DNA of 41,987 nt, taken from a virus. The notes beneath the pieces are model-generated. The model did no database searches, was not told the DNA's origin, and saw only the letters and a program-made list of their open reading frames with translations. The translations under genes were made by a program, and so were the position numbers. The stretch lies in the IMG/VR virus record IMGVR_UViG_3300020215_000035; one strand, written 5' to 3'. The first letter of the stretch is position 1, and the number at the start of each line of letters is the position of its first letter. Of the stretch, positions 3,452-34,942 are shown piece after piece.

Positions 3452-3684
3452 ACGTGTTTGCCCCCGACCGGCTCACGCCGGAGGCCGTCGCCTACATGAT
3501 CGGCCGCGTGCTCGACGACCCCCCCGGCGCCGCCGCCTACCGGGAGGAATTGAGGCCGCGTCTCCGCGTTGTCCACGGCCTCGCCTACTCGACCCTTGAC
3601 CTCTTCGACCCGATCTGGGAGTGGCACCGCCAACAAGGCCGGAGCGCTTGGGAGGCCGTCCGCTTTGAGTTCGGAACCCTATGA
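3448..3684 (+). CDS. hypothetical protein
   Basis: 78-aa ORF, coupled at both ends. Confidence 0.65.
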   Translation: MNVFAPDRLTPEAVAYMIGRVLDDPPGAAAYREELRPRLRVVHGLAYSTLDLFDPIWEWHRQQGRSAWEAVRFEFGTL

Positions 3685-3968
3685 ACGCCCCCCTCCCCTA
3701 CTCCGAACGGGACCGCCTCCGCCGCCTCGAAGCCGAGGAGAACGAGCTGCTCGACGTGGTGACGGACGTGCGGCGGCCGATGGCCGTCCGCGCCGTCGCC
3801 GAGCACCGGCTAGCGGCGCTCCGCCCCACGCTCGACGCCCTCCAGGCCCGCCTCGACGCCGAAGAACGGCGTGCCGAAGAACTCCCCACGCTCGCCGCCT
3901 CCGGTGCCCCGTCCGTCGGGCGTGGCGCGCGGGGGGCGGCGGCCTACGAGGGCGCGGTAGCTACGTGA
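3681..3968 (+). CDS. hypothetical coiled-coil protein
   Basis: 95-aa ORF rich in R/E/L heptad-like sequence; its stop overlaps GTG 3965. Confidence 0.65.
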   Translation: MNAPLPYSERDRLRRLEAEENELLDVVTDVRRPMAVRAVAEHRLAALRPTLDALQARLDAEERRAEELPTLAASGAPSVGRGARGAAAYEGAVAT

Positions 3969-4627
3969 ACGCCGTGACCCCTCCCGCCCATACGAGGCCC
4001 GTGCGCATCCTGATCTCCGGCGGGGCCGACCTCGGCCTCGTCGCCGAGGAGACGGGGTGCCCCACGGGCACGCTCTTGGTGCCGACGTGCAACAACCGGC
4101 GGGTGCGGGAGGGGTACCCGTTCGCCGTGGACAACGGGGCCTTCACCGGGTTCAACCGCGACACGCGCGCGGCGTTCGGGGACATCCTCGCCAAGTCGAG
4201 GCCGCACCGGGAGCGGTGCCTCTTCGTGGCCGTCCCCGACGTGGTGGGGAGCGCGCGGCGGACGCTGGAGTGCTTCGAGGCGTGGCGCCGGAAGCTGAAC
4301 GGGTGGCCCCTCGCGCTCGTCTGCCAGGACGGGCAGGAGCACCTCCCGATCCCGTGGCACCAGATCGAGGCCGTGTTCATCGGCGGCTCCACCGAGTGGA
4401 AGCTGTCGAAGCACGCCGAGCACGTCGTCCGGGCGGCGCAGATCCACGGCAAGCACGTCCACGTCGGCCGGGTCAACACGCCGGGCCGCTTCTCGCACTT
4501 CGAGGCGCTAGGGGTGGACTCCATCGACGGCGGCAACCTCGCGTGGCGCCGTGAGCACCGCCTAGCGATCCGTCGCCGCCACGACGATGCCCCCGCCCTC
4601 TTCGAGCCCGAGCCCCTAGCCGCCTAA
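3965..4627 (+). CDS. minimal TGT-fold protein, DpdA-like DNA/tRNA-guanine transglycosylase candidate
   Basis: GTG start coupled as GTGA. The motif order resembles tRNA-guanine transglycosylases: VDNGAFTGF (cf DSGGFQ), AVPDVV (cf LDEC), CQDGQ (cf QGG), FIGGSTEWK (cf GGLAVGE), HVHVGRV (cf LMGVG), LGVDSIDG (cf GxDMFD). No Zn-binding C-terminal domain. Confidence 0.6.
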   Translation: MNAVTPPAHTRPVRILISGGADLGLVAEETGCPTGTLLVPTCNNRRVREGYPFAVDNGAFTGFNRDTRAAFGDILAKSRPHRERCLFVAVPDVVGSARRTLECFEAWRRKLNGWPLALVCQDGQEHLPIPWHQIEAVFIGGSTEWKLSKHAEHVVRAAQIHGKHVHVGRVNTPGRFSHFEALGVDSIDGGNLAWRREHRLAIRRRHDDAPALFEPEPLAA

Positions 4628-5463: not shown

Positions 5464-7341
5464 TTGCCGAGTCCGTCCCCCACCACCCCGCCGCTCAGCG
5501 GCGGATTCGACCCCAACGCCGTCCTTGCCCGCGCCTTGGAGCGGGGGCAGGCCGGTTCCCGAAACGACGCCGCCGTGTGGCTGTCCTGCCAGCTCCGAGA
5601 CAACGGCACCCCGCTAGCCGAAGCGGAGGGGCTGCTGCGCGCGTTCGCCGCCGACGTGGGGACGCCTGAGGGGAAGGGCCGCTACACGAAAGCGGACGCC
5701 CTCGCCACCGTGCGGAGCGTCTACCGCCGGCCCGCGCGTGAGCCGTGGGCCGGGAGCCAGACCGGAGGGGCGAAGCCGGCGAAGCGGCCCCGGAAGCGGT
5801 ACGACCCCACGAAGGTTCCGAAGGTGAACGGGGAGCTAGGCGACGCCGACGCGGCGACGCGGGAGGCCGTCCGATTGCTGCAGATGGACCCCGAGGAGGC
5901 CGCCGCGCACTCCGCTTTCATCCGTAGGGAGGAGGAACGGATCGAGCGCGAGGCCGCCTCGCTCAACCTCGACATCGAGGACGCCCCGCTCTTCCCCCGC
6001 GCCGTCTACGACCTCCTCCCCCCGTCCATCGTCAACGCGGCGGCGCACTACACCGAGCCCCACCAGCCGGACGTGTTCACGGCCGGGCTCCTGCCCGTTC
6101 TCGGGGCGATGCTCCCGAACGTGTGGACGCGGCACCAGCGCCGCTACATCTCCCCCAACACGTACGTCGTCGTGACGGCGGAGACGGGCTCGGGGAAGAA
6201 CGTGCTAGAGGACGTGCGGGCCGTGGCGAGGCCGCTATCGGACGCCCTCGCCCTCCGCCGGGCGGAGGAACTGGCCCGGTGGAAAGACGAGAAGGAGGCG
6301 GCCGAAGCGGCGGCGATGGCCGTCCCCACGGAGCCCCCCCATTACCGCCTCTTCGTCCCGGCCAACGCCTCGGCGACCCCGTTCCTCCGCGCGCTGCAGA
6401 AGAACGAGGGGCGCGGGCTCGTGTTCGAGACGGAGATATACCCGCTGACCCAGGCGAGGGGGAACGAGTGGGGCGACTACACCGCGACGCTCCTGCAGGC
6501 GTACGGCCACGAGACGGTGAGCCTCCTCCGTAGCCAGGAGGAGTTCTACATCCCGAACCCCTGCGTCTCCGTCACCCTCTCCGGCACGCCGGATCAAGTC
6601 CTCCGCCTCATCCCCTCCGTCGAGGACGGGCTGTTCTCGCGGTTCGGGTTCTTCTACTTCGTCGGGACCGACGAATGGATAGACCACGGCCCGGCCGCCG
6701 GCTTCGACGACTTCAACGCCACGCTCTCCATCTTCGGGGAGATGATGGCCCGGGCGTACCACACGCTGCACGGCCGGCCCGAACGGCTCTTCGTTGACAT
6801 CTCCCCGGACGGGTGGGCCACGCTGCAGGAACCGTTCCGGCAGATGAAGGCGCGGGCCATCGCCAACGGGCAGCGCCCCCTCATCTCGGCCGTACACCGG
6901 GGGCCGATCATGGCCGCCCGGTTCGCCATGTGCCTCACGCTCCTCTCCCACATCGAGGAGGGGCGCGACCTCACGCCCACCGTTCGGAGCGTCGAGGTAC
7001 GGGAGAAGGCGGTATGGGCCGGCTCCATGATCGCCGCCACGCTGGTTGACCACGCTTTCCGCCTCGCCCAGCACCTCCCGAAAGCGCAGGCCCTCAAGAC
7101 GGCATACAGCCGGGACGTGCTTACCCGGTTCGCCCTCGCCCTGCCGGATCGGTTCGACCACCAGGCCCTCCTCTCGACGGCGACGGCGCTGGAGCTCAAG
7201 CAGAGCGCCGCCTACAAGTACCGCGCGAAGCTGCTGCAGCTCGGGTGGGCGGAGCCGGACGGCTACGGGTGGTGCAAGAAATCGCCCCGCTGCCCTTCGC
7301 CCTCGTCCATTGGTACACATGGTATTGAACATGATGACTAG
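5464..7341 (+). CDS. PriCT-like N-terminal domain plus DUF3987-type P-loop protein (replication initiator/helicase-like)
   Basis: TTG start. N-terminus GSRNDAAVWLSCQLRDNGTPLAEAEGLL...TVRSVYRR resembles primase C-terminal (PriCT) domains. Walker A-like VTAETGSGKN and Walker B-like GLVFETE. Flanked by iterons. Confidence 0.75.
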   Translation: MPSPSPTTPPLSGGFDPNAVLARALERGQAGSRNDAAVWLSCQLRDNGTPLAEAEGLLRAFAADVGTPEGKGRYTKADALATVRSVYRRPAREPWAGSQTGGAKPAKRPRKRYDPTKVPKVNGELGDADAATREAVRLLQMDPEEAAAHSAFIRREEERIEREAASLNLDIEDAPLFPRAVYDLLPPSIVNAAAHYTEPHQPDVFTAGLLPVLGAMLPNVWTRHQRRYISPNTYVVVTAETGSGKNVLEDVRAVARPLSDALALRRAEELARWKDEKEAAEAAAMAVPTEPPHYRLFVPANASATPFLRALQKNEGRGLVFETEIYPLTQARGNEWGDYTATLLQAYGHETVSLLRSQEEFYIPNPCVSVTLSGTPDQVLRLIPSVEDGLFSRFGFFYFVGTDEWIDHGPAAGFDDFNATLSIFGEMMARAYHTLHGRPERLFVDISPDGWATLQEPFRQMKARAIANGQRPLISAVHRGPIMAARFAMCLTLLSHIEEGRDLTPTVRSVEVREKAVWAGSMIAATLVDHAFRLAQHLPKAQALKTAYSRDVLTRFALALPDRFDHQALLSTATALELKQSAAYKYRAKLLQLGWAEPDGYGWCKKSPRCPSPSSIGTHGIEHDD

Positions 7342-7696: not shown

Positions 7697-8123
7697 CCCC
7701 GAGCACCACGAGCAGGTCGCCGTCGTCAACTGGGCGCGGTTCATGGCCGACACCGGGCGCCTCCCCGAGCTGGCCCTCCTCTACGCGGTCCCGAACGGGG
7801 GCCACCGGGAGAAGGCGACGGCCGGGCGGCTGAAAGCCGAAGGCACCCGGCGCGGCGTCCCGGACCTCTGCCTCCCCGTCCCCCGCCTCACCGTGGAAGG
7901 CGGCTACCTCGCCGGCCTCTACGTCGAGATGAAGGCGCCGGGCGGGTCCACGTCGCCGGAGCAACGGGCGTGGATCGCCGCGCTCGGCTCGCTCGGATAC
8001 CGCGCCGTCGTCTGCCGTGGGGCGGACGCCGCGAAGGCCGAGATCGAATCCTACCTCGCCCTCCCCCGCGTCGCCCCGCTCACCGTGGGAGATACCGTCC
8101 TCTTAGCCGCGCTCCCTCGATGA
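7689..8123 (+). CDS. VRR-NUC domain nuclease
   Basis: GVPDLCL ... LYVEMKAPGGSTSPEQRAWIAALGSLGY matches the D...ExK plus Q..W pattern of VRR-NUC proteins. Confidence 0.85.
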   Translation: MRSPEHHEQVAVVNWARFMADTGRLPELALLYAVPNGGHREKATAGRLKAEGTRRGVPDLCLPVPRLTVEGGYLAGLYVEMKAPGGSTSPEQRAWIAALGSLGYRAVVCRGADAAKAEIESYLALPRVAPLTVGDTVLLAALPR

Positions 8124-8377
8124 AGGTCAAGCACATGGCCCCGGACCAGCTCGCCAAGCTCCGCAAGAACCGGAGCGAGAAGGCCGCGCCGCTCCCGCCG
8201 CTCCGCGTGGTGGATCACCGCGCCCTCGCCGGCCTGCCGGAACCGCCCCGCGAACACGTCGAGCCCTGCCCGACGATGCAGCACCGGAATCAGTACCTCA
8301 CCGCGCTCCGTCGCTCCGTCCACGCGAACGGGGGCCGCGTCTCCGCTGACAAGGAAGGCACGATCCACGTCCGCTAA
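8120..8377 (+). CDS. hypothetical protein
   Basis: ATGA coupling at 8120; 85 aa. Confidence 0.55.
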   Translation: MKVKHMAPDQLAKLRKNRSEKAAPLPPLRVVDHRALAGLPEPPREHVEPCPTMQHRNQYLTALRRSVHANGGRVSADKEGTIHVR

Positions 8378-8386
8378 CGGCTCCCC

Positions 8387-8896
8387 ATGTACGCGCTCGT
8401 CCACAGCTCCACCCCGTCCCGCCCCGTCCGCCTCCTCTCCGGCGAGATGGTCTCCCCCTACGCCCGCACCCTCGTGCATAGGTTCATGCGGATGACGGGG
8501 TGGACGGCGCACGAGGTGGAGCGGCGGGGCTTCCGCGTCCGCTACGAACCGAACGCCTCGCGCATGTCCCCCTCGCTCTCGGCCGTCCTCGACGCCCTCA
8601 CGCCGGAGGCGTTGCCGCCGGCCCCGTTCCAGCTCGGCCCCGGCGAGACCGTGCGCGACGTGGCCCGCTTGCTCGCCGGCCTCCGCGCCGACCTCGACGG
8701 GGGGCCGCGGCAGCGGGAAGCCGCTCACCGCCGGCTCCGCAAGCTGCTTGACCTCGCCGGTTCCGCCCCGGGCGCTGGCCCGGGCGCCGCCGCCTCCGGG
8801 GGCGCGGCGGACGGCACGCACGACCCCCCTCTCGCTGTGAGCCCCGCAGGCGCACGCGAGCCCGAACCCGGCCCGGATAGCGGCCGGGCGATTTGA
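8387..8896 (+). CDS. hypothetical protein
   Basis: 169-aa ORF with no recognised domain. Confidence 0.6.
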   Translation: MYALVHSSTPSRPVRLLSGEMVSPYARTLVHRFMRMTGWTAHEVERRGFRVRYEPNASRMSPSLSAVLDALTPEALPPAPFQLGPGETVRDVARLLAGLRADLDGGPRQREAAHRRLRKLLDLAGSAPGAGPGAAASGGAADGTHDPPLAVSPAGAREPEPGPDSGRAI

Positions 8897-9502: not shown

Positions 9503-11158
9503 ATGCCCCCGCCGCTCCCCGTCGCTCAACTGTTGAGGGTGTCCACCGAAGGGCAGGCCGACCGCCTCGGGCTCCCGGCGCAGGAGACGGCGAACGGAGA
9601 GACGTGCCGCCGCTACGGGCTGGAGATCGTGGACACCGTGCGGATCGTGATGAGCGGCGCTGACGTGGCGACCTCACCGGGGATGGAGCAACTGCTTTCG
9701 TTGGTGGAATCGGGGCGAGCAAAGGGGATCGTCGTAGCGGCGTACGACCGGCTGTTCCGCCCCGAACGGTGGAGCGACCTGATAGTCCTCCAGCGGCTCC
9801 ACGATGCCGGGGCCGGCATCTGGACGCCGACGGGGCAGATAGACTTGACGACGGAGACGGGGCACATCCAGGCGACGCTCTACAACCTCTTCGCGGCGAT
9901 GGAGCGGCGGCGCATCCGGGAGCGCATGGCCGCCGGGCGCGAGGAGAAGCGGAAGCGCGGCGACCACTGCGGGTTCAAGCACTCCATCCCGCTAGGGCTT
10001 GACTGGACAGAGGAAACTGGGTGGAGCTACACGCCGGAGATCGCCCGGGTGGCCGAGTGCTTCCGCCTCTTCCTCTCCGGCGAACGTTCCCCCGAAGCCA
10101 TCGGCGCCCGCGTCGGGCTCGGGCGCACGACGGTGCGGTACGTCCTCCAGAACGAGGCTTATACCGGCTGGCGCGTCTACGACGAGAAGCGCGGGGCGGA
10201 GAAGCTCCCGTGCGGCGACCGCCGGAAGGTGAAGCGGGCCGAAGGCGAAGTGCTCCGCGTCCGCCTCCGCGACGCCTCGGGCACCCCGCTCCCGCCCGTC
10301 GTCAGCGAAGAGGACTTCGCCGCCATCCAGCACCACCTCGAACAAGGGCGGCTCCGGAGCGCGCGGGCGAACGCGGAGACGGAAGGGCACTTCGTCTACC
10401 GGGGCGTCCTCTACTGCGCCGTGCCCGGCCCCGAAGGGGACCCCTGCGGGTGCGCGTTCTACCACTCGGCCGGGGCACGGTACACGAGCGGCCCGCGCCG
10501 CGGCGAGCGGAAGCGGTTCTACCACTGCCGCACGATCAACCCCCGCTACGGCCCGCCGTGCGGGAACCCCTACCTCTCCGAACACCTCCTCGACCCCGTG
10601 CTCGACGCCGCCCTCGCCGGGAGCCTCACCGACCGGGCGTTGCTCCGCCGCGCTCTAGAACGCTTCCAGACGCGCGCGGGCGCCGAGGCGGTGTCTACCC
10701 CGGCCTTCGACGCCGCCGCGCTCCTCGCGCGCCTGGAAGAGCGTAGGGGCCGTGTGCTGGATGCGTTCGTGGACGGCGCCCTCACGCGGGAGGAACGGGA
10801 CGCGCGGCTCGCCCGCCTCGACGGCGAGCGCGACCGCCTCCTCGCCCTCGGCCCCGTCGCCCCGTCGCCCGTTCCGGCGGCCCGTCTTAGCGCTTCGGAC
10901 GTGCTCGCCGTGGTGCGGGTGTTCCGGCGGTTCCACCGCCGCAGCTACGAAGCGAAGCGGGCCGCGCTGGAGGCCGTGCGGCCCCGGCTGTTCGTGGACC
11001 GCTACGCCGTCCGGGGCGTCTGGCTCGACGGCAGGCTCTTCGGTGCAACGGAAGCCTCCGCCGGTCGTAACTCGGGCAACCTACTTCAAACGGTTGACGC
11101 TTTCGCTACCGCTCCGGGGCTCCCCCGGGGCGGGTTATACATCCCCCTCGCCGCCTAG
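9503..11158 (+). CDS. int: large serine recombinase (integrase)
   Basis: Resolvase catalytic N-terminus LLRVSTEGQ ... YDRLFR ... ERRRIRERM, recombinase domain, Cys-rich zinc-ribbon region (YCAV...CGC...HCR...CGNP) and a C-terminal coiled coil. Confidence 0.95.
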   Translation: MPPPLPVAQLLRVSTEGQADRLGLPAQETANGETCRRYGLEIVDTVRIVMSGADVATSPGMEQLLSLVESGRAKGIVVAAYDRLFRPERWSDLIVLQRLHDAGAGIWTPTGQIDLTTETGHIQATLYNLFAAMERRRIRERMAAGREEKRKRGDHCGFKHSIPLGLDWTEETGWSYTPEIARVAECFRLFLSGERSPEAIGARVGLGRTTVRYVLQNEAYTGWRVYDEKRGAEKLPCGDRRKVKRAEGEVLRVRLRDASGTPLPPVVSEEDFAAIQHHLEQGRLRSARANAETEGHFVYRGVLYCAVPGPEGDPCGCAFYHSAGARYTSGPRRGERKRFYHCRTINPRYGPPCGNPYLSEHLLDPVLDAALAGSLTDRALLRRALERFQTRAGAEAVSTPAFDAAALLARLEERRGRVLDAFVDGALTREERDARLARLDGERDRLLALGPVAPSPVPAARLSASDVLAVVRVFRRFHRRSYEAKRAALEAVRPRLFVDRYAVRGVWLDGRLFGATEASAGRNSGNLLQTVDAFATAPGLPRGGLYIPLAA

Positions 11159-11162
11159 AACC

Positions 11163-11438
11163 ATGTCCCGCCTCCGCATCATCGCCCTCGAAGCCGAGGG
11201 CACCGACGACGACGTGAACGCCGCCCTCCGCGGCCTCGTGGACGGCCTCACCGGCCCCACCCGCGTCACGCTCAACAGCCCTTACGGCTACCTCCGGGCA
11301 CCCGGCGGGGGCCGCATCCCGAACGGCACCGGGGGCGACGTGGAGGGGGCGTTCGACCCGGCTTCCTCCGCCGCCGTCCTCTTCGACGGCGAGCGCACGC
11401 CCGTCAAGGTGCCCGGCTTCTGGCTCGCCCTCGCCTGA
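11163..11438 (+). CDS. hypothetical protein
   Basis: 91-aa ORF starting 4 nt after the int stop; internal start of listed ORF 10752..11438. Confidence 0.55.
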   Translation: MSRLRIIALEAEGTDDDVNAALRGLVDGLTGPTRVTLNSPYGYLRAPGGGRIPNGTGGDVEGAFDPASSAAVLFDGERTPVKVPGFWLALA

Positions 11439-11461
11439 GCGCGGGGCGCCCCCCTCCCCAC

Positions 11462-11478
11462 GTCGGCCGAAGGCCGGC
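11462..11478 (+). terminator. short GC hairpin with GAA loop after the int operon
   Basis: gtcggcc-gaa-ggccggc, a 7-bp stem including one G-U pair; no U-tract. Confidence 0.3.
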
Positions 11479-11508
11479 GACCTACGCCCAATCAACCCCC
11501 CTACTGCC

Positions 11509-11931
11509 ATGCCTGCCGAGACCGAGACCAAGCGCACCGCGCTCACGCCCGTTGACTGCTGCGTCTGCGGCATCTCGTTCGGGCTCCCGAAGCACTACGC
11601 CGACGCCCGCCAGGAGGACCACCGCACGTTCTACTGCCCCAACGGGCACAACCTCGCATGGAGCCACCAGAGCGAAGCGGAGAAGGCGAAAGCCGAGGCC
11701 GAACGGCTCCGGGGTGAACTCGCCGCCGCGCGTCAGGACGCGAAGTATCAGCGGGAGCGCCGGGAGGCGGAGCAACGGCGAGTGATCGCGTTCAAGGGTC
11801 AGCTTACGCGAGTGAAGAAGCGCGTGGCCGCCGGGGTGTGCCCATGCTGCCACCGGACGTTCCAGAACCTCGCCGCCCACATGAAGGGGCAACACCCCTC
11901 CTACGCCGCCGACGCACAGACTTCCTCTTGA
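11509..11931 (+). CDS. zinc-finger / coiled-coil protein
   Basis: CCVCG...CPNGH near the N-terminus, a central KAEAERLRGEL... coiled coil, and C-terminal CPCCHRTFQNLAAHMKGQH (C2H2-like). Confidence 0.7.
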   Translation: MPAETETKRTALTPVDCCVCGISFGLPKHYADARQEDHRTFYCPNGHNLAWSHQSEAEKAKAEAERLRGELAAARQDAKYQRERREAEQRRVIAFKGQLTRVKKRVAAGVCPCCHRTFQNLAAHMKGQHPSYAADAQTSS

Positions 11932-11977
11932 CGGGTCTGCGCCGGCCCCCGCGCACGCCCACACCCCCAACCCTGCC

Positions 11978-12274
11978 ATGTACCCTGAGCCCGAAGACCT
12001 CGAACGCATCCGCACCTGGGGGCCCGGCGAGCACGGCGACTTCCCCGGCCTCATGGACTTCATCCGCTCCCTGTGGCACTTCGCGGACGCGGGGTACTTC
12101 ACCCAGGAGGGCGAGGCGTTCCACCTGTCCACGGCCGGGTGGAGCGGGAACGAGGACATCATCGAAGCCCTGGAAGCCAACGGGGTGTTCTGGATGACGT
12201 GCTGGCAACGCTCCGAGCGCGGCGGGCACTACCGCTTCACCGTGAAGCCGTGGCCGAAGCCGGCCCGGGTCTAG
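11978..12274 (+). CDS. hypothetical protein
   Basis: 98-aa ORF of varied composition (W/F/H rich); last gene of the plus-strand arm. Confidence 0.7.
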   Translation: MYPEPEDLERIRTWGPGEHGDFPGLMDFIRSLWHFADAGYFTQEGEAFHLSTAGWSGNEDIIEALEANGVFWMTCWQRSERGGHYRFTVKPWPKPARV

Positions 12275-12339
12275 TAGCCGGTCCCCGGGGCCCGCCTGGG
12301 GGCCGCGCACCCCCCGCGGGGAGCGGGGCTCCGGCGCGG
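12275..12339. terminator. Convergent-operon junction with nested GC hairpins (candidate bidirectional terminator)
   Basis: Outer GTAGCCG (12275-81) pairs with CGGCTAC (12337-43). Inner hairpins GGCCC-N6-GGGCC and CCCGC-GGGGA-GCGGG. No U-tracts. Confidence 0.35.
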
Positions 12340-12558
12340 CTACTCGGGCTTCCCGTGCTCGCGGGCGGCCCGCGCGGCGCTCCGCATCTGGCCCACCGTC
12401 GCCGCCGTCTCCATCGCCGCCAGGAGCACGTCGAGCCGCTCCTCCGCCGTCGTCACCGGCGGCTCCGGCGGGTCCGGGACCTCCTCCGTCGAGATGACGT
12501 TGTTGTCGGGCTTCGTCGGGTCGAACCCCCCCGGCCCATAAGTGACCACGGTTGCCAT
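12340..12558 (-). CDS. hypothetical small protein at the end of the tail-fibre module
   Basis: MATVVTYGPGGFDPTKPDNNVISTEEV...; this is the only plausible part of the 1204-aa listed ORF. Confidence 0.55.
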   Translation of the reverse strand: MATVVTYGPGGFDPTKPDNNVISTEEVPDPPEPPVTTAEERLDVLLAAMETAATVGQMRSAARAAREHGKPE

Positions 12559-12575
12559 TCGGGTGTACCTGTTTC

Positions 12576-13607
12576 TTAAGCGGCTCGGACGTAGACGCGG
12601 GCGGGGGCGTTGTTCGGGCTCACCGCCGGGGCCGGGTCGGGCAGCGCCCCCGTGACGGCGGACGCCGTGTACCCGGTGGAGAACTGGTTCGCCGGCGGCG
12701 ACGAGAACGCGACGACGACCGACGGCGTGGACACCGTGCGGATCGTGGCCCCCGTCGTCGGCCCCCCCTGCCACGCGCACGCGAGCCAGTAGAGCCCCGG
12801 CGTGAGGGCCTGGGAGACCGTGATGTCGTAGGAGGCGGCGGCCTGCGTCCCGTCTATCGTCCCGGCGTCGAGCACGCGCGCCCCGGGGCGGCCCGAGCCG
12901 TCGTCGGAATAGATGCCGAGGCGGAGGAGGGCCCCGGCCGAGCCCGAGACGGTGATCTCGACCCCGATCCGGTCCACCGTGCCCGCCTTCGCCACGAGGA
13001 ACGGGCCCCACCGGCACACCCCGTTCGCGGGCGACGTCGTGCCGGCGTTCGCCGCCGGCCCGGCGTAGTAGAGGCCCGCGACGAGGTGGGCCCCGAAGAG
13101 GGCGGCGGCGGCCGGGACGCCGAGGTTCGTCCGCGCCGTCGCCGCGTCCGAGGCCCCCGTCCCCCCGTCGGCAACGGGCACGTCGGTGCCCCCCGCGCGG
13201 TAGAGCGCGTTCCCCTCGACGGCCACGTCGCCCGCGCCCGTGCGGGTGAGCGTGGTGTCGCTGGCGTGGCCGAGGTTGACGCCCGTGAACTGCGGGGAGT
13301 CCCCGGTGGCGAGGCCGAGCGCCGTCCGCGCTTGGGTTGCCGTGAGGTCCTCGGGGTCGCCGGTCCCCGTGGCCGCCTGCCGCCCCTTGATGGTCCCCTC
13401 GGCCATGTTGGCGAGCTTCGGGTTCGTCACGGCGTCGTCGGCCAGCTTCGCCGTCGTGACCCCGCCGTCGGCCACCACCGTCGCCGGGAGCTGCGCCGCC
13501 GGCACCTTCGCGCTCCCGTCGAGCGAGGCGACCCCGTTCGCCACCCCCTTGTCGCTCTCGACGAGGACTTCCTCCCGGCGGTGCCGCGTGTCCTTGTAGA
13601 AGGCCAT
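12576..13607 (-). CDS. tail fibre protein
   Basis: GVASLDGSAKVPAAQLP and repeated ARTALGL / ARTNLGV motifs are typical of phage tail fibres. Gly/Thr/Ala-rich. Confidence 0.8.
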   Translation of the reverse strand: MAFYKDTRHRREEVLVESDKGVANGVASLDGSAKVPAAQLPATVVADGGVTTAKLADDAVTNPKLANMAEGTIKGRQAATGTGDPEDLTATQARTALGLATGDSPQFTGVNLGHASDTTLTRTGAGDVAVEGNALYRAGGTDVPVADGGTGASDAATARTNLGVPAAAALFGAHLVAGLYYAGPAANAGTTSPANGVCRWGPFLVAKAGTVDRIGVEITVSGSAGALLRLGIYSDDGSGRPGARVLDAGTIDGTQAAASYDITVSQALTPGLYWLACAWQGGPTTGATIRTVSTPSVVVAFSSPPANQFSTGYTASAVTGALPDPAPAVSPNNAPARVYVRAA

Positions 13608-13625
13608 CGGGGGAGCCCTCCGGGC

Positions 13626-16271
13626 TCAGGCTACGAGGGGGAGGTCGATGAGCATCTCGTTCAGGAAGTGCGCCGCCACCACCTGCCCGCCCGCGGCGCT
13701 GGTGTGCCGGGCGTCCCCTTCCTCGAGGAGCCCCTGCTCGTCCACCTCCGAGAAGTCGCCCATGAGGGTCAGGAGGTCGAGGAAGGCGCACCCCTCCTCG
13801 CGGGCGACGCCCCGGATGGTGTCGCGGATGTTGTCGAAGTGGTGGTCGGCCTGCACGCCGTAGTTCGAGACGAGGAGGATGGACGGGGCCGGGAGCGCGG
13901 CGGCCACGTACGCCGCCCGGATGCGGCCGAGGAGGACGACGTAGTTGTCGTAGAGGATCTCCGGCGCCGTCCGGTGATCCAATGACAGGTCGGCGTTCCC
14001 CCCGATGTCGATGGAGACCGCGCTCGCCCCCGTCGCCGCAAGCGCGTCCGCCCAATCCGGGTCGTCCGCGTCGTCGAGCACGTCCACCCAATGCTGGCTC
14101 CGGCTCCCACCTTTGCCGAGGTGGTGGACGCGGACCCCTCTCCCGGTGAGGCGGAGGTCGGCCCCGGTGATGCGGACGCCCGCCGCCCCCGCCACCGTGA
14201 CCTCGACGGTGAGGGTGTGGGAGGCGAGGGAGAGCCCGGTGACGGCGACGGAGCCCCACGCCGGGGCCGCCGCCGACGTGCTCACGGCGCCCCCCTGCTG
14301 CACGCCGTCCACGAGCACGCGGAACGTCCCCCCGTTGACCTGCTTCTGGTAGTGGACGACCGCCTGCTCGAACGTCGCCGTGAGCGCGTGCGTGGCTCCT
14401 ACTTCCGTCGAGGTGGCGTCGATGAGGTTCAGCCCGACGGTGCCGGCCGTCTCCCCGCGGTACGTCCACGCCCCCGTGATGGCCCGCGTGACGTTCTCGG
14501 GGAGGTTGTAGCTGTGCGCCCCGAACGAGTTGGGGGCAAAACTGACGTACCCGATCCCGGCGTCGCCGTAGAGCGTTTTGAGCCGCCGCGCCAGGATGGG
14601 GACGTGGCCGCGCGGCCACGCGAGCATCGTGTTCGAGATCCCCAGCATGGCGATGACGGCCTGCTCGTCGTCGTACCCCTCGACGGCGGCGAGCTCGGCC
14701 CGGATCGCGCCCAGCCGCGCGTACCACGCGTTCATGCGGCCCCGCCGCTCGGTGCCGGGGCGGTAGCGGCGGTCGAGCCGCTCGTAGAGGTCGGCCGGGA
14801 ACGCCCGGTCCGGCGGCACCGCGAGCGGGATCGGCCCCGGCGTCCCGTACTTCGCGTAGACGTCGAGCGTCCCCGTGAGCGAGGTCCGGTGCCATTCGAG
14901 GTCGAGGCGGTACCACCCCCCCACCGGCTGCGCGATCTCCGCCTGCGTGAACGTCTGCTCCGCCCCCGTCCCCGTGTACGTGGCCGAGACGGTGTAGGCC
15001 CCGATGGCGACGTTCTCGTCGTCGAGGAAGACGGCCCGGAGCGCCCACGTCGAGGCGGCCGTCGCCTTCCCCTTGACCTCCCACGAGATCAGGTCCGAGG
15101 CGCGGAGCCCGGCGAGCTCGTCGCGGTAGACGATGATGCCGCTGGTGTTCGTGGCCCGGAGCGTGTGGGCGTCCTCGATCCCCATCGCGTAGTAGGGGTT
15201 CGCGGCGTCCTCGGCGACGGTCGAGAGGTTCGACGGGTTCGCGTACCGGCGGCGGAGCCGCCCGTTCGGCCCCTCGGTCCCCTTGTAGTCGCTCGCCACG
15301 GCCGGGAGCACCGACCCCGGCTCCTGCGTGAACGGGTCGCGGATGAGGGCGGCCGGGCGGCGGTACGCCGGGTTGTGCGGCGCCATCGCGGCGGCCATCC
15401 CGGGCGTGACCCAGAGCGGGTCGTCCTCCGCCTGCACGGCGTCGGGCGCCGTCGCCCCGAGGAAGACCCCCCCGCTCCCGAGCTTGATCGCGTCGGTCCC
15501 GCTCTCGCGGTACGGCCCCCACGCGACCCAGACGGCCGTCGCGGGGATCGTGACGTTCTGGTGCTTGAGGAGCTCCCACCCCCCCGTGCCCGCCGCGCTC
15601 CCCGTCCGGACGAGCGTCCCGACGAGGTTGTCGTTCACGTCGTCGAAGCGGTAGAAGATGGAGCGGTTCGACGTCGTGGGGCACTTGACCCAGTGGTTGA
15701 GGCTGATCACCTGCCCCGCCGCGAGCCCGACGGCGGCCAAGAGCACCTTCGGCCCGCCGTAGTCCGGGTTGTCGTCGGCGAGGCTGAGGGCCTGCCCGTC
15801 GTTGGGGTCGTACTCCCCCGTGACGACGGAGAGCAGGTTCCCCGACCGCCACTTCTTGATCGTCGCCCCGGCCGCCGCGCGGAGCGTGGTCCCGTCCGGG
15901 GCGTAGATGGCGGCCTCGGTGACGATGCTGGTGTTCGGCGTCGCCTTGACGCACTTCGGGTCTATGGCGAGGTTCCGGCGGCTCACCGTGACGGCGTTGG
16001 CCGCGGCCGAGGCGGACGCCGCCGCCGCGTGCCCCGCCGCCCCCATCGTGAAGCTCGCGCCGGTCGAGACCGTGTACGGCCCCGTCGAGTGCGCGTGGAG
16101 GTAGGCGTCGCTCCCGGCCGTCGTGATCGCCGTGAGCTGGGTGTTCGCGTTGGTCGCCGCCGTCGTGGCCGTGTTGCCGGCGCTCGTCGCGTTCGCTATC
16201 GCGGCGTCGTCGGCCGTCGAGGCGAACGCCTTCCCGGCGTTCCGGCTCACCCTGATCCGGTCCGTTGCCAT
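13626..16271 (-). CDS. large tail fibre/tailspike with jelly-roll-like modules and a C-terminal SGNH/GDSL-type esterase
   Basis: Start ATG 16271 (TGATG coupling). Candidate SGNH blocks: LGISNT (block I Ser), IDIGGNAD (block III) and DARHTS (block V D..H). Confidence 0.7.
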   Translation of the reverse strand: MATDRIRVSRNAGKAFASTADDAAIANATSAGNTATTAATNANTQLTAITTAGSDAYLHAHSTGPYTVSTGASFTMGAAGHAAAASASAAANAVTVSRRNLAIDPKCVKATPNTSIVTEAAIYAPDGTTLRAAAGATIKKWRSGNLLSVVTGEYDPNDGQALSLADDNPDYGGPKVLLAAVGLAAGQVISLNHWVKCPTTSNRSIFYRFDDVNDNLVGTLVRTGSAAGTGGWELLKHQNVTIPATAVWVAWGPYRESGTDAIKLGSGGVFLGATAPDAVQAEDDPLWVTPGMAAAMAPHNPAYRRPAALIRDPFTQEPGSVLPAVASDYKGTEGPNGRLRRRYANPSNLSTVAEDAANPYYAMGIEDAHTLRATNTSGIIVYRDELAGLRASDLISWEVKGKATAASTWALRAVFLDDENVAIGAYTVSATYTGTGAEQTFTQAEIAQPVGGWYRLDLEWHRTSLTGTLDVYAKYGTPGPIPLAVPPDRAFPADLYERLDRRYRPGTERRGRMNAWYARLGAIRAELAAVEGYDDEQAVIAMLGISNTMLAWPRGHVPILARRLKTLYGDAGIGYVSFAPNSFGAHSYNLPENVTRAITGAWTYRGETAGTVGLNLIDATSTEVGATHALTATFEQAVVHYQKQVNGGTFRVLVDGVQQGGAVSTSAAAPAWGSVAVTGLSLASHTLTVEVTVAGAAGVRITGADLRLTGRGVRVHHLGKGGSRSQHWVDVLDDADDPDWADALAATGASAVSIDIGGNADLSLDHRTAPEILYDNYVVLLGRIRAAYVAAALPAPSILLVSNYGVQADHHFDNIRDTIRGVAREEGCAFLDLLTLMGDFSEVDEQGLLEEGDARHTSAAGGQVVAAHFLNEMLIDLPLVA

Positions 16272-18871
16272 CAGTTCCCCAGGCGTAGTTCGGTGATGTA
16301 CTCGGCCTCGTCGGCGGCGAGCGCGAGCTCGGTCCCCTCGACGTCGGCCTCCGCCGTGTCCAGCGTCCAGTCGATGAGGTCCGGGGCCGCGTAGTAGCTG
16401 TAGAGGGCGCCCTCGCCGACGGGGTGCGTGTTCGCTATGGTCCCGGTGAAGACGACCGCGTAAGAGCCGGTCCCCCGCGTGCAGGTAGACACCGTGAGCG
16501 TCTCCTCCGTCGCCTTCCCGACGCCGAGCGTGACCGACTGCCCCGGCGCGACGCGGGCGCGGAGGTTCACGCGGTCCTCCCCCCCCACGACCTGCCCCTC
16601 TATCGTCGTCTTCTGCCAGTACTTCGGGACGTGCTGGGGGAGGAGCCGCTGGGACGCCGAGGCGTACTGGAACCGCGTGAGGAACCGCTCCAGCCCCCCG
16701 CCCGTGTCGCCGGCGGCGACGTACCCGTTCAGCTGGAGGAGCGCCCGGCGGGCCGAGAAGTCCTCCAGCCCCTGCGCCGTCGTCGGGTCGCCGGCCCCGT
16801 ACGCCCCCGCCTTCCACCCCGTCGACGAGCCCTGGTACGTCGGCTGCTCGTCCGCCACCAGGGTCGTGAGCCCGGTCTGGGAGTCGGGGAGCGGGCCGTC
16901 GCCGACGGGGTGCTCGGACGCCGCGTCCCCGGCGGGGATGGACTCCTCCAGCCCCGGGGAGCCGGCGCCTTTGGTGACGACGGCGGAAACCGTATCCGGC
17001 TCCGAACCCTCCATCCGAAGCGATATGATCACGTCGTCAAAGGCGACGGCGGCCCCGATCCCGGTGGGGCCGTAAAGCGTGGTGGAGACGGTGCCGGAGA
17101 CGATCTCCCCGCCCTTGGCGTACCCCGTGGCGAAGATGGACGCCGCCCCCATCGCCAGCCACGCGTCCACCTGCACGGAGCCAGAGCCGTGGAGCCACTG
17201 CGTCACGCCCGACGCCCAGTAGTAGAACGTGAACGTGTCCCCTTCGTGAACGTCAGCGTCTAGGTCCCCCTCCAAGACGCGCCCCCCGATCCGCGCCTCC
17301 TTCGTCGTCGTCAGCGTCGCAACGTGGTCGTCGCCGCTGAACCCGTACAGCGTCACCCCGGCCGGGATAACCGGCGTCCCGGCGGCGGCCCCAGAGACGC
17401 CGTTGAGGAGGGGTTCAACCCACACCTTCGCGGGGCTCCCGGGGCGGCTGTCAATCACCACGGAGGCCGTAGCGCGAACGAGGCCGTAGTCCCCGATCTT
17501 GAAGAGGATGCCGCCGTTCTGCGTGAGGGAGCCCGGGATGGGGGCGAGGAGCCCGAACGCGTACGAGACGTGCAGCGACCAACCCGCCGACGCGGGGAGG
17601 TACACGTACCCCGATTGCACGGCCGTTTGCTCGTTCCCACCCGATGCCCCGTTGATCTGGAGGATGTATTCGTCGTTATACGTCACCGGGAAAGGCCACC
17701 CGGAGGAGTCGGCGGGAATCCGGTTCGCACCCGTTGACTGAACCCAATACTTGGCTTTCGTCGTGCCGCCGGTCCCCTCCTCTTCAAAGGACGGATTCAG
17801 GACGACGTTCTCTAGGACGCCTTCGAAGTTGTACGCGCTCTCAATTGACTTCACCGGCAGCATCGTCTCTCGTAACGCGCCAACATCCTGAACCCATGCC
17901 TTGGTATCCTTGACCAAGTTGGGCGTCGTCATCGTCGGAGGGGCCGCAGTTTCGATGCCCCAAAAGGCTCCGGTGCCGGAAGTAGATGCCGGGTAAGTCC
18001 ACACCTTGGGACCTGTTGGCGAGGCTGCCAAATAGTCCCTTTGTAAAATCCACCAATACCCCTCGCTCTGCACCAACCGGCACCCGAACCTTGCCGACAG
18101 CGCCCGCACGCCTTCGAGGGCGTCCACGCTCGCGCCGTCCTCGTCGGTCCACGCGGTTTGTAGGCTCTTCAGGTACCAGAGCGGGTCCTGTGTCCCCGTG
18201 ATTTGGTCAGCGGTACCCCCGGGGCGGAAGGGGCGCCAGTTGCTACAGGACTTCACGCCTTCCCAACCCGCACCGTTAAACGACGTGTTCACCGCGCCCC
18301 CGAGCGGGCCGATACAGCGCGCGAAGTCGTCTAGGACGCGGCCCGTCCGTGAGGCGATTGCGCCGGTACCGACGAAGGGCTGCTTCAAAAGGAATCTTAG
18401 GCTGTCGTGGAACGTCAGCCGCACCGCACCCCCCCGCGTCGGCGAGTCCAGGAGGCTCTCTTGGGCGAGGTAGCCGATGGCGAGGGGGGTCCAGGCGGTC
18501 GGGGTGGTGGCGTCGTTCGCCTCCTCTACGACGCACTGGAGGGCGCCGTCGGCGAGCCCTACGATGCCGCCGAACCGGCCCGGCCCCTGGAACGTCGGGT
18601 GATCCACGAGCGAGAGCTCTATCGTCATCGGGAGGACGGGGCGGAGCACGTCCGTGGGGCCGGCCACCGGCGCCCCCCAGCGGACGCGGAAGCCCCCGCG
18701 GTAGACCTGCACCGCGTAGGCGTCCCCCGTGTACGTGGCCGCCCGGATGCGGAAGCGGTACCGCACCTGATCCGGGGCGATGATGCCGATGGTGCTCGCC
18801 CCGGCCCGTCCGTAGACGTCGTGGGCGGCGCCGAGCACGTAGAGGTCGCCGTATGTCGTCGTGAGGTTCAT
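16271..18871 (-). CDS. large distal tail / tail-tip protein (host-specificity candidate)
   Basis: 866-aa ORF immediately after the tape measure, with ATGA coupling at 18868-18871. Internal start of listed ORF 16271..19429. Confidence 0.7.
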   Translation of the reverse strand: MNLTTTYGDLYVLGAAHDVYGRAGASTIGIIAPDQVRYRFRIRAATYTGDAYAVQVYRGGFRVRWGAPVAGPTDVLRPVLPMTIELSLVDHPTFQGPGRFGGIVGLADGALQCVVEEANDATTPTAWTPLAIGYLAQESLLDSPTRGGAVRLTFHDSLRFLLKQPFVGTGAIASRTGRVLDDFARCIGPLGGAVNTSFNGAGWEGVKSCSNWRPFRPGGTADQITGTQDPLWYLKSLQTAWTDEDGASVDALEGVRALSARFGCRLVQSEGYWWILQRDYLAASPTGPKVWTYPASTSGTGAFWGIETAAPPTMTTPNLVKDTKAWVQDVGALRETMLPVKSIESAYNFEGVLENVVLNPSFEEEGTGGTTKAKYWVQSTGANRIPADSSGWPFPVTYNDEYILQINGASGGNEQTAVQSGYVYLPASAGWSLHVSYAFGLLAPIPGSLTQNGGILFKIGDYGLVRATASVVIDSRPGSPAKVWVEPLLNGVSGAAAGTPVIPAGVTLYGFSGDDHVATLTTTKEARIGGRVLEGDLDADVHEGDTFTFYYWASGVTQWLHGSGSVQVDAWLAMGAASIFATGYAKGGEIVSGTVSTTLYGPTGIGAAVAFDDVIISLRMEGSEPDTVSAVVTKGAGSPGLEESIPAGDAASEHPVGDGPLPDSQTGLTTLVADEQPTYQGSSTGWKAGAYGAGDPTTAQGLEDFSARRALLQLNGYVAAGDTGGGLERFLTRFQYASASQRLLPQHVPKYWQKTTIEGQVVGGEDRVNLRARVAPGQSVTLGVGKATEETLTVSTCTRGTGSYAVVFTGTIANTHPVGEGALYSYYAAPDLIDWTLDTAEADVEGTELALAADEAEYITELRLGN

Positions 18872-20520
18872 CGGCCCGTCAGCCGCTCCATCCGCTCGGC
18901 CCGCTGGTAGCCGGCGCGGATGACCTCGACGGGGATCACGACGTTGCCGCCGACGAGGCGGGCCGCGCCCTGCTGGAGCGCGTAGGCGCCGGAGCCGCCG
19001 GGGGCCACCCCTCCCCCGCCCGTGGGGATGCCGAGGGCGCCGCCGAGGAACGTCGCCCACCCCGCCCCGCCGGGGATGAGGTTGAGGAGGGCGAGGATGC
19101 CGCGGAGCGCGAGCGCCCGCGCTATCGTCGTGGTGATGGCGGCGGCGGTGTCCTGGAGCGCGCGGACGAGGTTCTCCCCGAAGTTGTCGAAGCGGAGCGC
19201 CGCGACGTCCCCGAGGACCGTGGCGAGCCCGTCGGCGAGCGTGAGGGTGCCGGCGAGGTACGCCTGGGCGTCCGTGCTCATCCGCGTGGCCTCCTCCAGC
19301 ATCCGCGCCGTCGTCGCCGCCCGCTCGTTCACCATCACCACGGAGCCGGCCGCCCCCTCCAGGCCCAGGCTGAGCCCGCGGGCGGCGACGGCGCCGGCCT
19401 CCAGCGTCTGCTTGTAGCCGTCGAGCCACTTGATCCCGTCGGCCACCGTCTGGTGGAACTTCCTGAGCTTCGCCTCCTCGTCCGATATCTCCTTCGGGCG
19501 GCGGCCTCTCCGTTCCCGGCGCTCCTGGGGTGCGTACGGGTTGGACAGGAAGAGGCGGCTGGGATCAACGTTGCCCTGTCCGATTGCCGCCTCTAAGGCG
19601 GGCAGACTCGTCGGGCCAGTCGCCGCCCCCTGGATGGGGGTTCCGCCCAGCGCAGCCCGCGTGAGCCCCGCCTGCATCTCTAGATCCTCCAGCACCCCCC
19701 GGAGGTAGTCGGCGGCACCGCCGAACTCGTTTGCTCGCCGCGTCGCTTCCCCGAACTCATTACCCAGCCCGAGCATCGAGCCCAGCAGCATCCCAGTGGA
19801 CCCGATGAGCGTGTAATCCGCTCGGATCTGGCTGAGCGTGGCTAGCTCCCTGGCTTCCAAGGATTCGGCTAGGGCGAGCTGCTCCCGTATCGCCTCCGCC
19901 GTCCTTAGCGAGAGGCTCGCCGTAGCCACCTCGACATCGTAGAACGACCGCGCGGCTGCCTCCCCCGCCTCCTCGGCTTCGTTCCTCATCTGCTGGAAGC
20001 GGGCGACGAGGACGGCCCCAACAGCGACCATCCCCGTAATGGCGCCCGACGCCGCGCCCACGCCAGCGGCGAAGTTGTCGAACCGCGACGTGGCTTCCCC
20101 CGATTCCGCCGCCACCTGAGATAGCCCGCGGGCTACTTCGGGGAGGTCGTTTGCGATCAACAGGAGCCGTTGACCTAGCGACCCTGTAGAGGTGAGCGCC
20201 TGCTGGGCACCTGTAGCGAGCCCTCGGAGCGCCATCTGCGCCCCCTGTGACCCCCGCGTGATTCCGGTGAAGCCGGGGAGCTGTTGCTTGAGGGCCTCCG
20301 TCTGCGCGACGATAGCCGCCTTCTCCTGCTGGAGTGCGGCGACGTTGGCAACGATCTCCTGCTTATAGGAATCGGCTGCCCCGCCAGCGCTCCGATACGC
20401 ATCCTGCGCCGAACGCAGCGAGGACTCGACGGCCTTCAGCTCCAGCGAGAGGTGAGCGAGCTTGGTAACGGCGTCGTTCGCGTCCGCCCGAACCCGGAGA
20501 AGGAGGTCTTGCTCAGCCAT
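18868..20520 (-). CDS. tail tape measure protein
   Basis: 550 aa, Ala/Gly/Leu-rich helical protein with hydrophobic glycine-rich segments, downstream of the G/GT chaperones. Confidence 0.85.
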   Translation of the reverse strand: MAEQDLLLRVRADANDAVTKLAHLSLELKAVESSLRSAQDAYRSAGGAADSYKQEIVANVAALQQEKAAIVAQTEALKQQLPGFTGITRGSQGAQMALRGLATGAQQALTSTGSLGQRLLLIANDLPEVARGLSQVAAESGEATSRFDNFAAGVGAASGAITGMVAVGAVLVARFQQMRNEAEEAGEAAARSFYDVEVATASLSLRTAEAIREQLALAESLEARELATLSQIRADYTLIGSTGMLLGSMLGLGNEFGEATRRANEFGGAADYLRGVLEDLEMQAGLTRAALGGTPIQGAATGPTSLPALEAAIGQGNVDPSRLFLSNPYAPQERRERRGRRPKEISDEEAKLRKFHQTVADGIKWLDGYKQTLEAGAVAARGLSLGLEGAAGSVVMVNERAATTARMLEEATRMSTDAQAYLAGTLTLADGLATVLGDVAALRFDNFGENLVRALQDTAAAITTTIARALALRGILALLNLIPGGAGWATFLGGALGIPTGGGGVAPGGSGAYALQQGAARLVGGNVVIPVEVIRAGYQRAERMERLTGR

Positions 20521-33850: not shown

Positions 33851-34942
33851 TCAGGCATCGGCGAAGGCTTCCAGTTGCTTCGGGGTGGGGACGAACGCGG
33901 CCAGCCGGGCGCGGGCGATCTCGACGTACTCCGCCTCGCGCTCGACGCCGACGAAGCGGAGCCCTTCGTGGAGGCAGGCGAGGCCGGTGGTGCCGCTCCC
34001 GGCGAAGGGGTCGAGGACGAGGCCGCCGGGCGGGGTGACGAGGCGGACGAGCCAGCGCATGAGCGCCAGCGGCTTCACCGTGGGGTGGGTGTTGCGCGAG
34101 GGGGCGCGCTCCCCCGTCCGATGCACGCCGTCGCTGCACTCGTGCTCGGGGTTGTTCAGCGGTGCCCCGGCGTATGCCTTGCGGGCGCGCGGCTCTAGGT
34201 GCCCGAGCCCGGCCTCCCGCTCGCTCCGGCTCGCCTTGGCGCAGTAGAAGAAGCGGGCGGCGGTGCCCTTGTCGTCGTACGAGGGCGCCTGTTCCATCGG
34301 GCCGTAGTTGCCGTGGAACCCGCTGCCCCGGCGCTTTCCGTTGCTGACGGCCCCTTTAACTTCCCCGAACCGGGCGAAGGCGTCGAGCACCTCGGCGCTC
34401 CCGTCGTGGGCGACGTTGGCGGGCCAGCGACCAAGAGAATGTCCCGGCTTGTTCTCGTACGTCTCGTGAGCCGGCCGCCTCCATCCTTCGTGAACGCCTG
34501 CGCACTTCCCATACGAAGGGCCGCCGCCGGGGACGGGCTCGCCGGGATTGATGCGGCAGGCGTCCACGTTCAGCGGCGTCACCGGCCCCTTCCGCGCCAC
34601 GCAGACGGGCTCGTAGGCCGGCTTCAGCTTGCTCCCGTGCTTGGGGAAGCCGGAGCCGTAGAGCCAGCACACGGTATCTTCGATGGCGAACCCGGCGTCC
34701 TCGATGTTCACCCATATCCGGTGCATCGTCCGGGTGCCGCCGAAGCACAGGAGCCGCCCGCCGTCGGCGAGCACGCGGTACACCTCGGCCCACACGTCCA
34801 CGCCGGGCACGTCGTAGTCCCACCGCCGCCCCATGAACCGGAGCCCATAGGGGGGGTCGGTCACGACGGCATCGACGGCCCCCGGCTCCATCGAGGCGAG
34901 GTGGTCGAGGCAGTCGGCGTGGATGATCGAGGCGTCAGGCAC
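33851..34942 (-). CDS. DNA methyltransferase, N6A/N4C beta-class (N4/N6 MTase domain)
   Basis: GTG start. Motif IV VVTDPPYG is N-terminal and motif I VLDPFAGSGTTG is C-terminal, followed by FVGVEREAEY. Confidence 0.9.
   Translation of the reverse strand: MPDASIIHADCLDHLASMEPGAVDAVVTDPPYGLRFMGRRWDYDVPGVDVWAEVYRVLADGGRLLCFGGTRTMHRIWVNIEDAGFAIEDTVCWLYGSGFPKHGSKLKPAYEPVCVARKGPVTPLNVDACRINPGEPVPGGGPSYGKCAGVHEGWRRPAHETYENKPGHSLGRWPANVAHDGSAEVLDAFARFGEVKGAVSNGKRRGSGFHGNYGPMEQAPSYDDKGTAARFFYCAKASRSEREAGLGHLEPRARKAYAGAPLNNPEHECSDGVHRTGERAPSRNTHPTVKPLALMRWLVRLVTPPGGLVLDPFAGSGTTGLACLHEGLRFVGVEREAEYVEIARARLAAFVPTPKQLEAFADA

Follow-up and report, generated by a model that had tools for sequence, protein, structure and literature searches.

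The window analysed here, the whole 41,987-nucleotide stretch of the IMG/VR virus record IMGVR_UViG_3300020215_000035, carries at positions 3965 to 4627 of the plus strand a short gene whose product is very probably a barrel of the tRNA-guanine transglycosylase (TGT)/DpdA superfamily with an intact predicted transglycosylase active site. The open reading frame (ORF) and its translation give a protein of 220 amino acids from a GTG start, and this GTG (position 3965) overlaps the stop codon of an upstream gene of 95 amino acids by 4 nucleotides, which suggests that the two genes are translationally coupled. The upstream gene is not conserved beside homologues in the 160 related loci. A second in-frame GTG at 4001 (codon 13) matches the position of the N-termini of nearly all homologues, and the mature protein may therefore be a form of 208 residues that starts there. 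The homologue N-termini thus favour the start at 4001 and the overlap with the upstream stop codon favours that at 3965; GAGG-like motifs lie about 12 nucleotides upstream of GTG 3965 and 3 nucleotides upstream of GTG 4001.

Six motifs follow one another in the 220-residue protein: VDNGAF (D56), VPD (D92), QDG (residues 121–123), FIGGS (138–142), HVGRV (166–170) and GVDSID (183–188). The first-pass annotation, made from the letters alone, had listed this reading frame and these motifs in this order as counterparts of the TGT motifs; all are present, and the correspondences are in register with the DpdA alignment described below. To judge from their conservation, the motifs do not resemble those of TGT by chance. 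In 79 diverse representatives of the family, each 32–51% identical to the window protein, eight columns never vary (D56, D92, T100, Q121, F138, G141, G168 and D188), only three of them Asp. The QDG site, whose counterpart in TGT we take to be Q203-G204, aligns through Q121 with H103 of gp87 of Arthrobacter phage Sonali (hhalign). In the DpdA of S. Montevideo, mutagenesis has shown D95 to be the general acid/base, F99 the stacking Phe and D256 the nucleophile, the substitutions D95A and D256A each abolish guanine exchange, and the G206-G207 loop forms the pocket for the 7-substituent (PMC10164549). The predicted equivalents of these residues in the short protein are listed with their coordinates in Table 1; by analogy with S. 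Montevideo DpdA (7UI4), the predicted mechanism is a double-displacement base exchange on DNA.

The relationship to TGT and DpdA is visible only by profile–profile comparison together with structure, since single-sequence and family-profile searches of Pfam, NCBIfam, PADLOC and PDB sequences gave nothing usable. The window protein has no significant match in Pfam, NCBIfam or PADLOC. In a scan with PHROG HMMs it matches the unannotated phrog_15826 (E = 6e-40), as do all 79 representatives, and it has a faint match (E = 0.079) to the queuine tRNA-ribosyltransferase PHROG, the only annotated PHROG that the 79 representatives match repeatedly. Sequence profiles of the short family match no TGT or DpdA among PDB sequences, and direct BLAST and HMM searches from the phage DpdA1 group do not detect the window protein (tblastn E = 0.02). 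A profile of canonical phage DpdA was built from Sonali gp87, the CAjan-type Seuratvirus DpdA phiG7_16 and 35 homologues (37 sequences), and hhalign aligned the 79-member short-family profile with it at 95% probability (E = 4e-8, 139 columns); a less diverse short-family profile reached 75%. The alignment pairs D56 with D37, D92 with D73, G140-G141 with a GG pair, H166 with H155 and D188 with D174, and D37, D73, H155 and D174 are themselves invariant in the canonical phage DpdA alignment, so that the catalytic Asp equivalents D56, D92 and D188 are both invariant within the short family and matched to Asp residues of phage DpdA. The motifs DSGAFT and SvDSS of the phage DpdA profile align in turn with DCGAFT and SIDST of the crystallised S. 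Montevideo DpdA (PDB 7UI4), which hold D95/F99 and D256 if a construct offset of 20 residues is assumed.

The AlphaFold2 model of the protein is confident (pLDDT 90.6, pTM 0.85) and has the eight beta/alpha units of a TIM barrel, and the conserved residues all lie at the C-terminal ends of predicted strands; D92, for instance, lies just past the predicted strand 85–89. The top Foldseek matches in the PDB are structures of Z. mobilis TGT (E = 5.6e-5, TMq about 0.5, 10–13% identity), and phage DpdAs are among the top five matches in BFVD. Fold alone would not decide the question, since unrelated TIM barrels score only slightly worse than TGT; it is the profile alignment, the barrel model and the first place of TGT in the PDB search that together bear out the TGT/DpdA identity originally proposed.

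Going by the sequence and the model, the protein keeps the catalytic Asp trio and is without a C-terminal subdomain. Neither the window protein nor any of the 79 representatives has a Cys/His zinc motif, and the absence of a C-terminal zinc subdomain, which the first-pass annotation had noted, is therefore real but not distinctive: a Cys-cluster zinc motif occurs in none of the 37 canonical phage DpdAs either, so that this motif marks TGT and bacterial DpdA and not phage DpdA. As far as the alignments go, the real difference from canonical phage DpdA is the shorter tail, which past the nucleophile motif measures about 36 residues in the short family versus about 127 in canonical phage DpdA (about 32 residues beyond D188 in the window protein).

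With the phage DpdA1 proteins, such as those of Escherichia phage CAjan, Mycobacterium phage Rosebush and Sonali (gp87), the short family has in common the TIM-barrel core, the lack of a Cys-cluster zinc motif and the motif order DxGAF, xDVxG, Q/H-x-G, GG and nucleophile Asp. Both are encoded by phages, lie in replication or early regions and are linked, as families, to preQ0 genes; the short proteins are about 90 residues shorter, and the two can share one genome, as in Sonali and in the Seuratvirus Escherichia phage phiG7. Bacterial DpdA (bDpdA) has a structural zinc site and four insertions and requires the ParB-like ATPase DpdB (PMC10164549), whereas the short protein has neither the zinc site nor the insertions. 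Z. mobilis TGT, the best structural match in the PDB, has chains of about 370–380 residues, and the short protein is about 160 residues shorter and without the zinc subdomain. DpdA3 (CGPG_00065 of Cellulophaga phage phiST, and Campylobacter phages) and DpdA4 (gp69 of Halovirus HVTV-1, DUF6610) are divergent TGT-like proteins recognised only by HHpred, and some of them are the only modification gene in the viral genome (PMC10516641); the short family is likewise divergent, TGT-like and often solo. In tblastn searches at E ≤ 1e-3 it matched no Cellulophaga, Campylobacter, Flavobacterium or haloarchaeal virus, and Foldseek gave a weak match (E = 0.026) to a 259-residue phiST protein that may or may not be DpdA3. 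The gene neighbours of the short family include true QueD proteins with the CxxxHGH motif and not the DpdA3-associated DpdL. The possibility that these ‘QueD’ neighbours are DpdL decarboxylases, which would have linked the family to DpdA3, was rejected, as all 12 keep the catalytic QueD motif.

The window gene is one ordinary member of a minimal, uncharacterised DpdA subfamily. The family comprises 4,082 clusters at 90% identity (E ≤ 1e-3) and 2,975 at 50%, its members are nearly all about 200 residues long, and none among the matches listed has a Pfam domain. The short length, first taken as a peculiarity of this phage, is thus the norm across some 3,000 clusters at 50% identity. The family is covered by no model in Pfam or NCBIfam and sits in a PHROG of ‘unknown function’; the SEA-PHAGES label ‘DpdA-like tRNA-guanine transglycosylase’ on family members nevertheless means that the resemblance to DpdA has already been noticed. 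Our literature search turned up no paper on a short DpdA subfamily, and the five members looked for in the 2019 census (ReqiPine5, Fishburne, Ksquared, Majeke and R6L) are absent from it; the R7M paper covers a canonical DpdA cluster only. The 2023 classification contains only bDpdA and DpdA1 to DpdA4 (PMC10516641) and is presented as covering all viruses with these pathways.

A few members deserve separate mention. Two proteins, P0199 (370 residues) and P0244 (408 residues), consist of a short DpdA-like domain followed by a Zn-ribbon and helix-turn-helix of an ISL3-family transposase, and may reflect either a gene call that runs on into an insertion sequence or a genuine fusion. The ‘DarB-like antirestriction protein’ of Erythrobacter phage ZS04 (L171, 5962–6603) was considered as a further fusion and discarded, as it is a standalone short-family member of 213 residues; its label looks like annotation transfer, since the protein is not a polyprotein of DarB size.

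The family as a whole is tied to the genes of 7-deazaguanine synthesis. In the 485-residue protein P0260 the short domain is fused to a full QueC domain (PF06508, E = 3e-44). A QueC (27) or QueD (12) homologue adjoins the short gene in 39 of 80 viral loci, and when loci are dereplicated at 80% identity, QueC, QueD or QueE abuts it in 11 of 38 viral clusters, with a median gap of 9 nucleotides. The neighbours tested are bona fide (QueC E = 2e-45, PTPS E = 7e-32), and tblastn found no canonical DpdA in the 80 viral loci. In one of these loci (L021) the order helicase, SSB, QueC and short DpdA describes a replication module. In many uncultured phages the stretches examined, such as those at L021 (9435–10600), L070 (9683–11192) and L031 (9645–10510), show QueC alone, QueD alone, or QueD with QueE beside the short gene; from this gene content, it seems that such phages fill in for one particular step of the host and do not encode preQ0 synthesis in full.

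Some phages carry a short gene alongside a canonical DpdA. In Sonali (L002), the short gp81 (7962–8579) precedes the canonical DpdA gp87, which is accompanied by QueC, QueD, QueE and FolE (10359–14375); directly upstream of gp87 lies gp86, a protein with a ParB-like nuclease domain, an arrangement reminiscent of DpdA and DpdB in bacterial Dpd systems. In phiG7 (L004), a frame-split short copy (7992–8189 and 8216–8506) lies 1.5 kb downstream of the dpdA cluster. In both phiG7 and Escherichia phage SHIN8 the split gene is flanked by the canonical dpdA/preQ0 cluster and by the DNA polymerase gene and is annotated as two hypothetical ORFs; it may be a pseudogene, owe its split to a sequencing error, or be read by programmed frameshifting.

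The window itself has none of these partners. Its genome is circular, closed and complete, since its first 127 nucleotides are identical to its last 127 (1–127 = 41861–41987) and contigs of the same phage in ENA ERZ27257312 and ERZ27252495, each 41,971 bp long, begin at different points; a 9.7-kb contig of the same phage was also found in Logan SRR7003766. Six-frame tblastn of the window detected no QueC, QueD, QueE or FolE (best E = 0.24), with queries that cross-detect between an actinophage and a coliphage at E values of 5e-5 to 1e-28, and Pfam found none of the four among the window proteins tested; the earlier statement that this genome has no preQ0 synthesis genes therefore holds. No second DpdA was found by six-frame tblastn in the window either. 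The accompanying claim that DpdA normally comes with preQ0 genes does not agree with the 2019 census, in which viruses with DpdA only form the largest group (76 of 182; PMC6884629), and the solo state is common in the short family too. Que genes are absent within 10 kb of the short gene in 36 of 37 dereplicated genome (prophage-type) clusters, from a genome-collection scan with the closer family alignment, and in 27 of 38 viral clusters. None were found in the complete genome of Arthrobacter phage Aoka, nor in Mycobacterium phage GreaseLightnin up to position 45,431; Synechococcus phage Ssp-JY42 is a further isolated phage with a solo short gene, and the nearest relatives of the window are a mix of solo and Que-linked members. 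To present this gene as unusual for being solo and short is thus an overstatement.

How might such an enzyme work in a phage without precursor genes? We hold it to be about evenly balanced whether the enzyme of this phage replaces DNA guanine by a 7-deazaguanine supplied by the host; insertion of a host-supplied base is in itself plausible. On this reading the enzyme would be a minimal single (beta/alpha)8 barrel of some 208–220 residues that has lost the C-terminal extension of about 90 residues found in canonical phage DpdA. D56 would act as general acid/base with F60 stacking on the base, D188 would be the nucleophile, D92 and Q121 would recognise a guanine-type base, and G140-G141 would form the pocket loop. 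The resulting intermediate would be resolved by a free 7-deazaguanine base, most likely preQ0, and since the closed genome has no FolE, QueD, QueE or QueC, the incoming base would come from the queuosine-precursor pool of the host. The outcome would be that, after replication, part of the G in the phage DNA is exchanged and the DNA thereby shielded from restriction. The homology, the conserved catalytic residues, the fold, the tie of the family to QueC, QueD and QueE and the lack of pathway genes in this genome are results of the analysis, whereas DNA and not tRNA as the substrate, the nature of the inserted base, its supply by the host and the role against restriction are inferred. There is precedent in E. 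coli, where canonical DpdA expressed by itself from a plasmid inserts preQ0 made by the host (PMC6884629, PMC10516641), and the position of the window gene upstream of the genes for a DUF3987 protein and a VRR-NUC nuclease also counts in favour.

A number of results weigh against this reading. As regards identity, PF01702, the profile proposed at the outset as a check, is not matched by the window protein even at E ≤ 10 nor by any of the 79 relatives at E ≤ 1, and DUF6610 (PF20314, DpdA4) is matched by neither the window protein nor the 79 relatives. The match of 9 of the 79 members to phrog_887 is weak, no single-sequence HMM reaches TGT, and the unrelated TIM barrels GlpQ (1.1e-4), BexX (1.6e-4) and NanA score barely below TGT in Foldseek. 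As regards function, no DpdB- or ParB-like family match was found among the window proteins scanned, though bacterial DpdA needs DpdB, and the coexistence of the short gene with canonical DpdA in Sonali and phiG7 means that it may not simply duplicate the latter. As regards supply, the DNA of phage Orion, which has a canonical solo DpdA, is unmodified (PMC6884629). Solo short members also occur in Fishburnevirus phages of M. smegmatis, and Mycobacterium is reported to be without Q or preQ0 genes (PMC6884629); given the strict catalytic conservation, these phages are the sharpest unexplained point.

These difficulties are met in different ways by the other explanations. One, which we consider unlikely, is that the short DpdA is competent and starved of substrate: the 7-deazaguanine would be absent or dependent on the host, the virion DNA would be unmodified, and the gene would be conditionally useful cargo that moves between phages with and without Que genes. 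The precedents from canonical DpdA fit this explanation, as next to unmodified Orion there is Salmonella phage 7-11 with about 0.02% dADG (PMC6884629), and so do the many solo members of the short family and the mixture of solo and Que-linked genes among the nearest relatives of the window. The 72% GC of the window makes an actinobacterial host plausible, and some actinobacteria are without the preQ0 pathway (PMC6884629). Yet strict catalytic conservation across thousands of mostly solo members argues for selection on some activity in those very genomes, and the copy in the window is intact and apparently translationally coupled to the gene before it.

It is similarly improbable, in our estimate, that the TGT active site serves another reaction, be it insertion of another base (preQ1, CDG, 7-deazaguanine or an unrelated purine analogue), hydrolysis as a DNA glycosylase, or modification of tRNA. 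DpdA subfamilies have shifted substrate repeatedly, with preQ1 for the DpdA2 of VH7D and CDG, DG or ADG proposed for DpdA3 (PMC10516641), and the partial pathways in which only QueC or only QueD adjoins the short gene hint at non-standard precursors. Coexistence with canonical DpdA in one genome, solo members in hosts without preQ0, and the lack of the C-terminal region of canonical DpdA could be read in the same way. However, the invariant D92 and Q121, reading a 2-amino-6-oxo edge, favour guanine or 7-deazaguanine as ligand, the fusion with QueC points to preQ0, the product of QueC, and the replication-module context favours DNA over tRNA.

A bolder proposal, to which we attach little probability, is that the short proteins constitute a sixth, self-sufficient DpdA subfamily without zinc subdomain or DpdB partner, and that it would, in solo phages such as this one and in mycobacteriophages whose hosts are without preQ0, install some base outside the known 7-deazaguanines or scavenge an unexpected host metabolite; were it true, it would amount to an undescribed DNA modification across thousands of temperate phages and prophages. 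Finally, that the protein is an unrelated TIM-barrel enzyme such as an EAL or GlpQ phosphodiesterase, its TGT likeness being convergent or coincidental, is highly improbable: the near-equal Foldseek scores of GlpQ, BexX and NanA, the failure of the family profiles to reach TGT or DpdA in the PDB and the EAL matches of 5 of the 79 members (best E = 0.008), which are sub-threshold and not significant, stand against an hhalign alignment to phage DpdA with all five motif positions in register, the repeated matches to the queuine tRNA-ribosyltransferase PHROG, and a QueC fusion and tight QueC/QueD/QueE adjacency that would be unexpected for a phosphodiesterase.

Exchange of guanine for a host-supplied 7-deazaguanine would matter beyond this phage, since 7-deazaguanine modifications of DNA are a major counter-defence of phages and the short family by far exceeds the published viral censuses in size. 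Should the family prove active, present counts of phages and prophages that modify their guanines fall well short, and a protein of about 200 residues would represent the smallest catalytic core of a DNA transglycosylase, with uses in enzymology and engineering. Which base is used by solo members whose hosts are without preQ0 is a clear and testable question. For the window itself the result is modest: an uncultured temperate phage adds one solo member to the family.

According to Pfam and PHROG scans, the surrounding genome is that of a temperate, siphovirus-type phage, with, in addition to the features of Table 1, a VRR-NUC nuclease, terminase, portal, Mu-F-like head protein, tail genes and a GH19 endolysin. 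No tRNA genes were found in the window. Neither a 6-kb DNA segment nor the portal matched any of 50,697 records of isolated phages, the relatives of the terminase are all metagenomic sequences, and named prophages have at most the target gene plus a methylase or lysin in common with the window. By sequence comparison, the structural module is very divergent from characterised phages.

Table 1. Positions of the short DpdA-like gene, its predicted active-site elements and other features of the window
Feature	Position	Strand	Basis and remarks
Upstream gene, 95 amino acids, no assigned function	3681–3968	+	Codon-position GC gene calling, ORF list
Short DpdA-like (TGT-superfamily) gene	3965–4627	+	ORF list, translation, codon-position GC gene calling
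D56-N-G-A-F60	4130–4144	+	D56 predicted general acid/base, F60 predicted base-stacking aromatic; predicted equivalents of D95/F99 of S. Montevideo DpdA
P91-D92	4235–4240	+	D92 predicted base-recognition Asp; predicted equivalent of D130 of S. Montevideo DpdA
Q121-G123 (QDG)	4325–4333	+	Q121 invariant, G123 at least 90% conserved; after predicted strand 116–120
F138-I-G140-G141-S142, Gly-rich loop after sixth barrel strand	4376–4390	+	F138 and G141 invariant, G140 at least 90% conserved; aligns with GG of phage DpdA
D188, predicted nucleophile Asp in G-V-D-S-I-D-G	4526–4528	+	Invariant; predicted equivalent of D256 of S. Montevideo DpdA
DUF3987 primase/helicase-like protein	5464–7341		Pfam/PHROG
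Large serine integrase	9503–11158		Pfam/PHROG
N6/N4 DNA methyltransferase	33851–34942	−	Pfam N6_N4_Mtase, E = 8e-35; same call in ENA copies
Repressor	38524–39078	−	Pfam/PHROG
MT-A70-family DNA adenine methyltransferase	39475–40179, start uncertain	+	Pfam MT-A70, E = 4e-17; 234-residue ENA call with PF05063

Within the structural module (regions 13626–20520 and 26073–28163, both on the minus strand), a 696-residue ORF in the capsid position has no more than a faint Phage_capsid match, and three large ORFs of the tail region (881, 866 and 550 residues) match no PHROG at E ≤ 1e-5. The two methylases pointed out in the first-pass annotation are indeed present (N6_N4_Mtase and MT-A70) and count as the second and third DNA-modification genes of the phage, and homologues of the former lie within 10 kb of the short DpdA gene in 14 of the 160 related loci. 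Divergent from the N6/N4 methyltransferase gene runs an ORF of 302 residues without a Pfam match (35069–35977, plus strand); if it encodes a nuclease, this methylase would not be an orphan.

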